Under the pieces are notes generated by a model. The model made no database searches and was not told the DNA's origin. It was given only the letters and a program-made list of their open reading frames with translations. Shown here one piece after another: positions 38,245-64,000 of a stretch of 64,000 nucleotides of DNA (position 1 is its first letter; each line of letters starts with the position of its first letter). The position numbers and the translations under genes are program-made. The stretch lies in assembly GCA_965235115.1 (NCBI GenBank), contig OZ249436.1, forward strand, positions 3,474,001 through 3,538,000, read 5' to 3'. This DNA comes from Laetmonice hystrix. Lineage: Eukaryota.

Positions 38245-38352
38245 ATGAATGTGACCCCATGCCTTGTCTGAATGGAGGTACATGCACCGAAGTTGCCAAC
38301 TCGTTTTTATGTCAGTGCGTTTCAGGATTCACGGGGGATGTCTGTGAAACAG
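38245..38352 (+). CDS. EGF exon: [36 protein letters not shown]
   Basis: TTTACAG| acceptor, AG|GTACAG donor, phase 1-1, canonical six-Cys EGF spacing. Confidence 0.92.
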
Positions 38353-38464
38353 GTACAGATTTTGAATGTTAACCGAGTTTGGAATCACGAGGGTTACGTG
38401 TCAAACAGGTGCAAAATTTAAATGTCAATGCGTGTTCGGATTCACGACTTTAAATGTTACACCG

Positions 38465-40348
38465 TGGGCAAACACGGTTAGAATAATAACGTCTTGAAAC
38501 AATACTCTACGCGTCCATGGCAAACTTCGGGTAAACACTGTAAGAATAATAACGTCTTGGGTAAATACTATACGCGTCCATGGTAAACTGTGGGTAAACA
38601 CTGTAAGAATAATAACGTCTTGGGTAAATACTATACGCGTCCATGGTAAACTGTGGGTAAACACTGTAAGAATAGTAACGTCTTGGGTAAATACTATACG
38701 CGTCCATGGTAAACTGTGGGTAAACACTGTAAGAATAATAACGTCTTGGGTAAATACTATACGCGTCCATGGTAAACTGTGGGTAAACACTGTAAGAATA
38801 ATAACGTCTTGGGTAAATACTATACGCGTCCATGGCAAACTGTGGGTAAACACTGTAAGAATAATAACGTCTTGGGTAAATACTATACGCGTCCATGGTA
38901 AACTGTGGGTAAACACTGTAAGAATAATAACGTCTTGGGTAAATACTATACGCGTCCATGGCAAACTGTGGGTAAACACTGTAAGAATAATAACGTCTTG
39001 GGTAAATACTATACGCGTCCATGGTAAACTGTGGGTAAACACTGTAAGAATAATAACGTCTTGGGTAAATACTATACGCGTCCATGGTAAACTGTGGGTA
39101 AACACTGTAAGAATAATAACGTCTTGGGTAAATACTAAACGCGTCCATGGCAAACTGTGGGTAAACACTGTAAGAATAATAACGTCTTGGGTAAATACTA
39201 TACGCGTCCATGGTAAACTGTGGGTAAACACTGTAAGAATAATAACGTTTTGGGTAAATACTATACGCGTCCATGGCAAACTGTTGGTAAACACTGTAAG
39301 AATAATAACGTCTTGGGTAAATACTATACGCGTCCATGGTAAACTGTTGGTAAACACTGTAAGAATAATAACGTCTTGGGTAAATATTACACGCGTCCAT
39401 GGTAAACTGTGGGTAAACACTGTAAGAATAATAACGTCTTGGGTAAATACTATACGCGTCCATGGTAAACTGTGGGTAAACACTGTAAGAATAATAACGT
39501 CTTGGGTAAATACTATACGCGTCCATGGTAAACTGTGGGTAAACACTGTAAGAATAATAACGTCTTGGGTAAATACTATACGCGTCCATGGCAAACTGTG
39601 GGTAAACACTGTAAGAATAATAACGTCTTGGGTAAATACTAAACGCGTCCATGGCAAACTGTTGGTAAACACTGTAAGAATAATAACGTCTTGGGTAAAT
39701 ACTATACGCGTCCATGGTAAACTGTGGGTAAACACTGTAAGAATAATAACGTCTTGGGTAAATACTATACGCGTCCATGGTAAACTGTGGGTAAACACTG
39801 TAAGAATAATAACGTCTTGGGTAAATACTATACGCGTCCATGGTAAACTGTGGGTAAACACTGTAAGAATAATAACGTCTTGGGTAAATACTATACGCGT
39901 CCATGGCAAACTGTGGGTAAACACTGTAAGAATAATAACGTCTTGGGTAAATACTAAACGCGTCCATGGCAAACTGTGGGTAAACACTGTAAGAATAATA
40001 ACGTCTTGGGTAAATACTATACGCGTCCATGGCAAACTGTGGGTAAACACTGTAAGAATAATAACGTCTTGGGTAAATACTATACGCGTCCATGGTAAAC
40101 TGTGGGTAAACACTGTAAGAATAATAACGTCTTGGGTAAATACTATACGCGTCCATGGTAAACTGTGGGTAAACACTGTAAGAATAATAACGTCTTGGGT
40201 AAATACTATACGCGTCCATGGTAAACTGTGGGTAAACACTGTAAGAATAATAACGTCTTGGGTAAATATTACACGCGTCCATGGTAAACTGTGGGTAAAC
40301 ACTGTAAGAATAATAACGTATTGGGTAAATATTACACGCGTCCATGGT
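38465..40348. repeat. 63-bp minisatellite, ~29 copies (intronic)
   Basis: Unit ACGCGTCCATGGTAAACTGTGGGTAAACACTGTAAGAATAATAACGTCTTGGGTAAATACTAT. Confidence 0.97.
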
Positions 40349-40472
40349 ACTATGTGACCGGTCGCAAACAATGGTTCTGGAAACTCAAAATCACAGTAAA
40401 ATAAAAGGGTGCTGTCATGGCCTCAGTTATACATTACCTCGGTCTTATAGAAATAATCTGTTTATTTTACAG

Positions 40473-61927: not shown

Positions 61928-62286
61928 ATACCCAACAGATGGCCGCACCCAAAGGATAGCCGCAGGAGGTATTTAGACCTCATGGTTAGATAAAAATTTG
62001 TACCACGTGTCAGTGCAGGGACTATTTAGATGTTGGGGGTTATTGTTATGAGGCATACAACACAAAAAAGTATAAACGTAATTATGCAAGTCCGTGAGCG
62101 AGTGTAGTGGCCCCTGGTGGCATGTGGGGGAACCCTCCCACAGTCTGGCTCTGTGTGCTGGGAGGGTTGCTGGATAATGGCAGCAGAGGGTCTGCAGAGC
62201 AACAAATAAACTTCCACAGATATAACTTGGCTCGTCAGTTTAGATACAACCTCCACCGAGAAACATTTCTGAGAAAATAAACTCAC

Positions 62287-62451
62287 ATTAAAGCCAAGAT
62301 AACTCCTGCGAGAAACCCTGATGATGTTATGAAGGACAGTATGACTGTGATGGCTGGTGCACTCTCCTCCCACTGGCCAACCAATTCAGAGATCACCTGG
62401 TACGATGTGTCTTTGTTCCGGTACGGCCCACATACTGCTGACGGCTTCAAT
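62287..62451 (-). CDS. Transmembrane channel-like (TMC5/7-type) exon: LKPSAVCGPYRNKDTSYQVISELVGQWEESAPAITVILSFITSSGFLAGVILAL
   Basis: CCCTGACAG| acceptor, AT|GTGAGT donor, phase 2-2. PSxxCGP followed by the last TM helix and then L..QI..EGKDK.FL in the next exons matches the TMC family C-terminus. The exact paralogue cannot be assigned by eye; upstream exons lie beyond the window. Confidence 0.9.
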
Positions 62452-64000
62452 CTGTCAGGGTAGGATCAAAGTCTGAGTGAGGGATCACACTGAACACGGC
62501 TTCAATCTGTCAGGGTAGGATCAAAGTCTGAGTAAGTGAGGGATTCACACTGAACATGGCTTCAATCTGTCAGGGAAGGATCAAAGTCTGAGTAAGTGAG
62601 GGATTCACACTGAACATGGCTTCAATCTGTCAGGGTAGGATCAACGTCTGAGTAAGTGGGGGATTCACACTGAACATGGCTTCAATCTGTCAGGGTAGGA
62701 TCAAAGTCTGAGTAAGTGAGGGATTCACACTGAACATGGCTTCAATCTGTCAGGGAAGGATCAAAGTCTGAGTAAGTGGGGGATTCACACTAAACACGGC
62801 ATCAATCTGTCAGGGTAGGATCAAAGTCTGAGTAAGTGGGGAATTCACACTGAACATGGCTTCAATCTGTCTGGGAAGGATCAAAGTCTGAGTAAGTGGG
62901 GGATTCACACTGAACATGGCTTCAATCTGTCTGGGAAGGATCAAAGTCTGAGTAAGTGGGGGATTCACACTGAACATGGCTTCAATCTGTCAGGGTAGGA
63001 TCAAAGTCTGAGTAAGTGAGGGATTCACACTGAACATGGCTTCAATCTGTCTGGGAAGGATCAAAGTCTGAGTAAGTGGGGGATTCACACTGAACATGGC
63101 TTTAATCTGTCAGGGTAGGATCAAAGTCTGAGTAAGTGGGGGATTCACACTGAACATGGCTTTAATCTGTCAGGGTAGGATCAAAGTCTGAGTAAGTGAG
63201 GGATTCACACTGAACATAGCTTCAATCTGTCAGGGTAGGATCAAAGTCTGAGTAAGTGAGGGATTCAGACTGAACATGGCTTCAATCTGTCAGGGTAGGA
63301 TCAAAGTCTGAGTAAGTGAGGGATTCAGACTGAACATGGCTTCAATCTGTCAGGGTAGGATCAAAGTCTAAGTGAGGGATTCACACTGAACATGGCTTCA
63401 ATCTGTCAGGGTTGGATCAAAGTCTGAGTAAGTGGGGGATTCACACTGAACATTCAATCTGTCAGGGTAGGATCAAAGTCTGAGAAAAGTGGGGGATTCA
63501 CACTGAACATTCAATCTGTCAGGGTAGGATCAAAGTCTGAGTAAGTGGGGGATTCACACTGAACATTCAATCTGTCAGGGTAGGATCAAAGTCTGAGAAA
63601 AGTGGGGGATTCACACTGAACATTCAATCTGTCAGGGTAGGATCAAAGTCTGAGGAAAGTGAGGGATTCACACTGAATATTCAATCTGTCAGGGTAGGAT
63701 CAAAGTCTGAGTAAGTGGGGGATTCACACTGAACATTCAATCTGTCAGGGTAGGATCAAAGTCTGAGAAAAGTGGGGGATTCACACTGAACATGGCTTCA
63801 ATCTGTCAGGGTTGGATCAAAGTCTGAGTAAGTGGGGGATTCACACTGAACATGGCTTCAATCTGTCAGGGTAGGATCAAAGTCTAAGTGAGGGATTCAC
63901 ACTGAACATGGCTTCAATCTGTCAGGGTTGGATCAAAGTCTGAGTAAGTGGGGGATTCACACTGAACATTCAATCTGTCAGGGTAGGATCAAAGTCTGAG
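62441..64000. repeat. 60-bp minisatellite (55-56-bp variants), ~27 copies in the window, containing the TMC splice acceptor
   Basis: Unit GGCTTCAATCTGTCAGGGTAGGATCAAAGTCTGAGTAAGTG(A/G)GGGATTCACACTGAACAT; the first copy overlaps the exon start. Confidence 0.97.

Follow-up and report, generated by a model that had tools for sequence, protein, structure and literature searches.

Mirage minisatellites across splice junctions in the short introns of the polychaete Laetmonice hystrix

Tandem arrays that lie across exon-intron boundaries, known as mirage minisatellites, have been reported from the amphioxus genes Adh3, globins BflGb6 and BflGb9, troponin C, and PGBD5 (PMC3087553, PMC3902484), two papers that cite the original description (Canestro 2002). 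The accessible portions of these papers place lancelet mirages on both the donor and the acceptor side, with variable copy number and normal mRNA, and report that RT-PCR found splicing undisturbed (PMC3087553). In intron 7 of human F7, a 37-bp VNTR provides the best-worked case, as the accessible part of that study shows experimentally that only the most upstream donor copy is used (PMC1557585). Excerpts from two further papers describe internal tandem repeats at exon-intron boundaries in human duplicated genes (PMC2812944) and boundary-crossing duplications that led to intron gain (PMC4974935). Intronic minisatellites are also present in earthworm metallothionein genes, and the available portion of that paper does not state their position relative to junctions (PMC12783039). 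The literature searched, with subscription journals mostly outside it, gave no polychaete mirage case and no genome-wide test of mirages against a null. We extend mirage minisatellites to polychaetes, where they occur at high density, and provide the first figure for the share of them that needs no special process, which in this sample is about two thirds to all.

The window that we analyzed is a 64,000-nucleotide stretch (positions 3474001-3538000 of its contig) in an assembly of 627 Mb and 35 contigs. The mitochondrial COX1 of this assembly translates without breaks in the invertebrate code and is closest to polychaete sequences, chiefly Phyllodocida, at 86-90% identity, which marks the animal as an annelid and rules out amphioxus. 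Two genes are concerned: a short EGF-repeat gene on the plus strand and, on the minus strand, the 3' end of a TMC gene, whose domain (PF07810) is located just upstream of the window and whose relative, P0121, is named TMC5-like. Exons were mapped by spliced alignments to homologues, and EGF exons by their fixed phase 1-1 layout, such that a splice site is called authentic here on the basis of protein homology and conserved intron positions rather than RNA. The features and their coordinates are collected in Table 1.

Table 1. Exons and tandem arrays of the two genes, in window coordinates
Feature	Position	Strand	Basis or remark
Putative first coding exon, EGF gene	33550..33622	+	translation; donor GTAGGT; hydrophobic signal-peptide-like stretch
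EGF exon, phase 1-1	38245..38352	+	PF00008 E=1e-10; donor at 38352
Decayed 57-bp donor-spanning repeat, ~2.5 copies	38305..38446	+	
63-bp array, 30 copies, wholly intronic here	38464..40349	+	
EGF exon	40473..40586	+	PF00008 E=1.5e-10
37-bp array, ~85 copies, mid-intron, without junction overlap	40786..43913	+	
34-bp array, 20 copies	44675..45357	+	ends 30 nt before acceptor 45388
EGF_CA-like exon, donor 45495	45388..45495	+	PF07645 E=4e-5 (below cut-off); 92% identical paralog region
94-bp donor mirage, 22 copies, 21 decoy donors	45493..47578	+	
Putative last coding exon, EGF gene	47940..48030	+	translation; without Pfam match
Putative last coding exon, TMC gene	53474..53859	-	open frame only
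32-bp array, ~93 copies, mid-intron	54072..57021	-	
TMC exon	57482..57623	-	acceptor position conserved in paralogs; donor putative
16-bp array, 41 copies, without overlap	57716..58379	-	ends 92 nt before acceptor
25-bp donor mirage, ~64 copies, 12 exonic nt	58474..60073	-	donor 60062
TMC exon, 79 nt	60062..60140	-	spliced alignments; length and phase equal in paralogs B, C, D, F
58-bp array, 31 copies	60145..61927	-	ends 4 nt before acceptor 60140
TMC exon, 165 nt, PS..CGP motif	62287..62451	-	tblastn E=1e-11 to P0121; spliced alignment; acceptor 62451
60-bp acceptor mirage, 35-36 copies, 9 exonic nt	62443..64000, continuing to 64544	-	

A sequence-only reading of this stretch had listed four arrays that overlap authentic splice sites. 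Its coordinates are right, and the overlaps at 45495, 60062, and 62451 stand, whereas the one at donor 38352 proved to be a decayed repeat of ~2.5 copies and not an array that TRF calls. This 57-bp repeat is nonetheless real, as its score was reached in 0 of 2,000 shuffles. The 63-bp array that follows begins 112 nt inside the intron downstream of donor 38352; we considered it as a product of that donor and rejected this origin, given that 461 of 2,000 shuffles reach the score. The same reading had placed two other arrays close to acceptors without overlap, and both lie where it put them. The 58-bp array copies the pyrimidine tract of its acceptor without the AG and holds 10 AG in 1779 nt, and so offers almost no decoy acceptors.

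The 25-, 57-, 60-, and 94-bp units all lie head to tail across an exon-intron boundary, marginally so at 45495, where the array takes in 3 exonic nt by TRF and up to 6 in some copies. GT or AG is kept in the copies, most of which score as the real site does. The units fall within the ~10 to 160 bp that characterizes mirages and are of local gene origin, their genome matches being only to their own array or to the gene's paralog. A genome search with the 25-, 58-, and 60-bp units matched their own array only, a result that does not by itself prove rarity. In the window, the 58-, 34-, 63-, 37-, 32-, and 16-bp arrays do not span a boundary. The four boundary-spanning repeats of the window are mirage minisatellites, a kind already described in amphioxus and human F7.

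The array test drew on sampled loci of ~300 kb in total and on 123 introns, four of them of medium confidence, from six TMC genes, five EGF loci, and one aminotransferase gene, which we take from its motifs to be GABA transaminase-like. Every intron counted starts with GT or GC and ends with AG. The counts leave aside introns with one end unassigned (several of TMC_E, the first two of the EGF gene, and TMC_A upstream of 70715, a part that includes an 88-bp array over a putative acceptor), duplications of whole exons at L032, the loci L034 and L035, the block of L036 that is duplicated, a donor-spanning array of 55 bp truncated where L038 ends, and any array whose period is below 15. Two uncounted arrays also appear to be junction spanning. 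Arrays of the upstream region at 84-111.5 kb were likewise kept out, as Pfam searches on 150 of its 193 candidate ORFs yielded VWC as the single clear domain and no exon map fit for use. As the null, every array was collapsed to a single unit, which was then placed uniformly at random such that it overlapped its own intron.

Introns of this sample are short. Those free of arrays have a median length of 252 nt (n=77), while the 46 of 123 that bear an array have a median of 1012 nt as they stand and 302 nt once collapsed. The sequence-only reading had offered, as one of two alternatives, that originally short introns expanded by tandem duplication, and this account is supported: collapsed introns are of ordinary size, and it predicts ~16 of the 23 spanning arrays. 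Under the collapsed null, which that reading had proposed, the window itself does not exceed chance (4 junction-spanning arrays out of 14, where 2.6 would be expected; P=0.24), whereas the sampled loci as a whole exceed it (23 of 60 against 16.0; P=0.018), with an observed-to-expected ratio of 1.44 (1.01-2.06) by gene bootstrap. Short introns thus account for most of the pattern, on top of which there may be a modest excess of ~1.4-fold.

The excess depends upon the length assumed for ancestral introns. One alternative, which we hold to be doubtful, is a modest real bias by which seeding or expansion is commoner at exon edges, besides the short-intron effect, for example, through exon-centred recombination or breaks or through greater expansion of GC-richer units. 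The excess is stronger among arrays of at least five copies (20 of 40 spanning against 12.3; P=0.004, or P=0.027 under a 300-nt intron cap), recurs outside the window (20 of 47 against 13.9; P=0.023), and is accompanied by slightly GC-richer spanning units (0.46 against 0.42). A pooled null over the first 50 arrays also speaks against random placement (21 spanning against 10.1; P=0.0002). However, the overall excess weakens to P=0.058 with ancestral introns capped at 400 nt and to P=0.15 at 300 nt, that is, if introns grew after seeding, and the sample consists of few genes in which the TMC and EGF families are over-represented. In a blind set, made up of the last loci, which were picked from EGF positions without sight of their repeats, 2 of 10 arrays span a junction, against 2.2 expected.

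The breakpoints tell against such a bias as well. Near misses occur at the null rate, both within 5 nt (2 of 37 against 1.9) and within 30 nt (7 of 37 against 7.9), and exonic nucleotides make up a uniformly distributed share of the spanning units (KS P=0.24, n=23); both findings speak against a mechanism tied to the splice site. Spanning units are longer (median 58 against 35 for the non-spanning), and longer units with a uniform exonic share are what random placement predicts. The other alternative of the sequence-only reading, a process that preferentially amplifies DNA at splice junctions, thus keeps a weak and model-dependent excess and finds no footing in the blind set or in the uniform breakpoints.

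We consider it probable that these arrays arose as untargeted local duplications in short introns, were amplified near chromosome ends, and have been tolerated, with the spare splice sites as by-products. In the first step, which is partly shown, a unique piece of 20 to 120 bp would undergo tandem duplication wherever it happens to lie, with a few bases of microhomology. The array ends speak to this step: 38 of 56 arrays (dimers included) end within -3 to +10 nt of their starting phase, against 19 expected, which suggests that arrays are whole multiples of one original piece, with short microhomology. In the second step, the dimer would be expanded into tens of copies, chiefly in the outer ~4 Mb of chromosomes. 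From what is generally known of minisatellites, the likely cause would be unequal exchange in distal regions. The third step is captured by the null, under which a unit of such size in an intron of ~250 nt would overlap a junction about one quarter of the time.

The evidence for the second step is positional and paralogous. Loci farther from a chromosome end carry less array sequence (rho -0.72 across 13 loci, of which several are neighbors and thus non-independent): cover is 18-65% at the seven loci within 4.0 Mb of an end and 0-4% at the other six. One array-poor locus just 1.1 Mb from an end runs against this trend. Introns near chromosome ends have grown by arrays private to them. The 94-bp unit also matches C1:191.7 kb, where a paralog of the EGF exon, with 92% identity, lies in a diverged gene copy 3.3 Mb away from the window gene. 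There it forms a simple dimer, against 22 copies in the window, so that a dimer and a 22-mer of one unit stand side by side in paralogs. The 34-bp array is common to both genes, and of the 57-bp repeat the paralog carries five copies, against ~2.5 in the window. Units common to the paralog indicate that the arrays are older than the gene duplication and that copy number has changed since; these differences show the amplification, with unequal exchange or slippage as its probable means. The paralog's 63-bp array starts at +1 of a donor, after an EGF exon that is absent from the window copy, and this donor-flush array is one point for the junction pattern that is hidden in the window alone.

The sequence-only reading had further argued that the spliceosome must pick one real site among many near-identical decoys, and this is borne out, with 21 copied sites in the 94-bp array, 61-66 (according to the matching rule) in the 25-bp array, and 35, 26 of them inside the window, in the 60-bp array; the donor case has already been studied in F7, as the accessible text of that paper sets out (PMC1557585). 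Homology puts the working site beside the intact exon in every case, as the first donor or the last acceptor. A rough matrix puts 176 of 205 donor decoys level with or above the real site, and likewise 95 of the 128 acceptor decoys, which were loosely called. As the decoys are not weakened, position must decide the choice of site, and exon definition probably governs the acceptors. In the fourth step of our preferred scenario of tolerated local duplications, arrays would survive because the exon-adjacent copy is still used, namely, the most upstream donor, as at F7, and the most downstream acceptor, by exon definition; most mis-spliced products would carry a premature stop and be degraded.

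The claim that any copied site in the three large arrays brings in a stop within about 8 codons holds for both donor arrays, where all decoys lead to an in-frame stop at codon 8 (EGF donor 45495) or codon 4 (TMC donor 60062). At TMC acceptor 62451 it holds for 22 of 35 decoys (codon 8) and fails for the other 13, which read on to codon 15 in six cases and to codon 21 in seven. We rejected early stops as a designed feature, as 2 of 23 spanning arrays lack stops and others have them as late as codon 132. Arrays in frame and stop free lie at TMC_D acceptor 17062 and TMC_B donor 14656.

Acceptor-side arrays, which make up 10 of the 23 that span a junction, show one regularity that random placement does not predict. 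Their periods are divisible by three in 7 of 10 cases, against 11 of 50 for the other arrays. This pattern was recognized post hoc (5 of 6 at first, and 2 of 4 among the later cases, with periods of 58, 63, 114, and 55), and it is weak. It could be taken to mean that there is a true seeding excess at exon edges and that acceptor units are filtered to multiples of three because upstream decoy acceptors are in use frequently enough to come under selection, a combination that we find unlikely. Were it true, natural stacks of identical 3' splice sites, some of them in frame and stop free, would furnish a genome-scale test of scanning against exon definition.

It is very unlikely that decoy number acts as an adaptive rheostat, with unproductive splicing and nonsense-mediated decay setting how much of the mRNA is productive. 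The suggestion of the sequence-only reading that copy number could tune productive splicing finds no support here. Full-strength decoys and the 21 of 23 spanning arrays without a stop-free in-frame decoy product would suit such a device, but stops and frameshifts are the ordinary result of reading intron DNA, two arrays are in frame and stop free, each intron has units of its own that are unrelated to those of the others, TMC paralogs distant from chromosome ends have practically no arrays (in 0 of 14 and 1 of 14 introns), and F7 decoys are silent (PMC1557585). An assembly artefact is extremely improbable, even though the contigs examined come from a single sample, from which the assembly itself may derive, given that copies carry structured variants (91-99% identity), that units recur in the diverged paralog, and that contigs of three runs (X1-X3; X4 has none there) cover intron and exon alike at 61930-62560, a coverage that carries no information on expression, with the 60-bp unit far exceeding the exon in summed depth, which is not to be taken as a copy number.

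Gene annotation can be led astray by arrays of this kind, and the stacks on the acceptor side offer a ready-made natural experiment in how a 3' splice site is chosen. The cases in PMC2812944 and PMC4974935 resemble those in L. hystrix in that minisatellite-size boundary duplications differ between recent paralogs; there, transcripts back the altered splicing or the new introns, whereas the annelid arrays show no new intron. Paralogs share all three TMC intron positions that homology maps in the window, which thus show no intron gain of the kind expected by the Rogers model, in which a new position absent from paralogs would be bounded by duplicated sites. As in F7, the first unit spans the exon-intron boundary and identical pseudo-donors follow the real donor; F7, however, has 5-9 copies on the donor side only, according to the available part of that report (PMC1557585), and its most-upstream rule is inapplicable to the acceptor-side arrays found here. 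The closest likeness is to the amphioxus mirages, which share boundary-spanning tandem duplication, units of 10-160 bp in many copies, and an intact AG or GT. Amphioxus mirages have been proposed as a route to intron gain, in the accessible text of both reports (PMC3087553, PMC3902484), and their mRNA was seen to be normal, whereas the annelid arrays are known from DNA alone. The mirages of L. hystrix differ from those of amphioxus in occurring in an annelid, in reaching ~64 copies, in their number (23 spanning arrays in 123 introns), and in clustering near chromosome ends.

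Across the sampled loci, the repeat period was divisible by three in 7 of the 10 arrays that span a splice acceptor, versus 11 of 50 other arrays. This excess of multiples of three among acceptor-spanning periods is unexplained, because most of the ten units contain a stop codon. Donor-based arrays include one founded on a GC donor, a 43-bp array of 42 copies in TMC paralog D (locus L025, donor 13280 of region C1:71422001).

The consequences of using a copied splice site, or decoy, were predicted from the frame of individual arrays. The consensus of the 63-bp acceptor array at locus L017 is stop-free and in frame, and a TAG in the copy closest to the real acceptor would terminate all of its decoy products. 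All 13 decoys at acceptor 17062 of TMC paralog D (L025-L026), and all 5 at donor 14656 of TMC paralog B (L019), would yield stop-free in-frame insertions of 17 to 18 residues. These two arrays are the best sites at which to seek decoy use.

Features of the window and of the sampled loci discussed here
Feature	Location	Strand	Remark
Tandem array, 853-854 bp unit	window 1-30700		
Decayed 52-bp array	window 30719-33047		next after the 853-854 bp array
EGF-like exon	window 36612-36740		
Candidate 21-nt micro-exon, phase 1-1, TMC gene	window 57272-57292	-	predicted from sequence only
Paralog of the window EGF gene	C1:170-192 kb (L040 and L041)		
63-bp acceptor array	L017:7835-8339 (region 121835-122339)		
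Duplicated block: acceptor array, exon and intron	L036:4264-7874 (C20:23.93 Mb)		

The EGF-like exon of the window carries an internal 16-bp duplication and a frameshift, its expected donor position has no GT, and a Pfam search of the exon returned no match. Possibly the EGF gene of the window is a duplicate that has been shortened or is decaying. Its paralog has an additional EGF exon separating the 57-bp from the 63-bp repeats, and in the exon common to both genes the differences are mostly amino-acid changing. In the TMC gene, the tabulated micro-exon is a possible one, judged from sequence, and its two alternative donors are separated by 21 nt. At window 62441-62525, the unit adjoining the exon is unlike the assembly in one contig of sequence run X2, a variant that is perhaps a second haplotype.

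By eye, at window 47550-47640, the end of the 94-bp unit is the first part of a palindromic element of a G-run and a C-run that extends beyond the array end, and a similar-looking element lies at window 35440-35500. At the left of the window, two 157-bp arrays, one with 17 copies and the other with 13, interrupt the 853-854 bp array.

Duplication in EGF genes extends to larger blocks. The duplicated block at L036 has produced two near-identical EGF exons, each preceded by a separate stack of decoys. The EGF genes at L032, L033 (C29) and C18:25.33 Mb have been enlarged by tandem duplication of a whole exon plus intron, with periods of about 295, 1750 and 310 bp; these duplications are another outcome of the process that generates the arrays.
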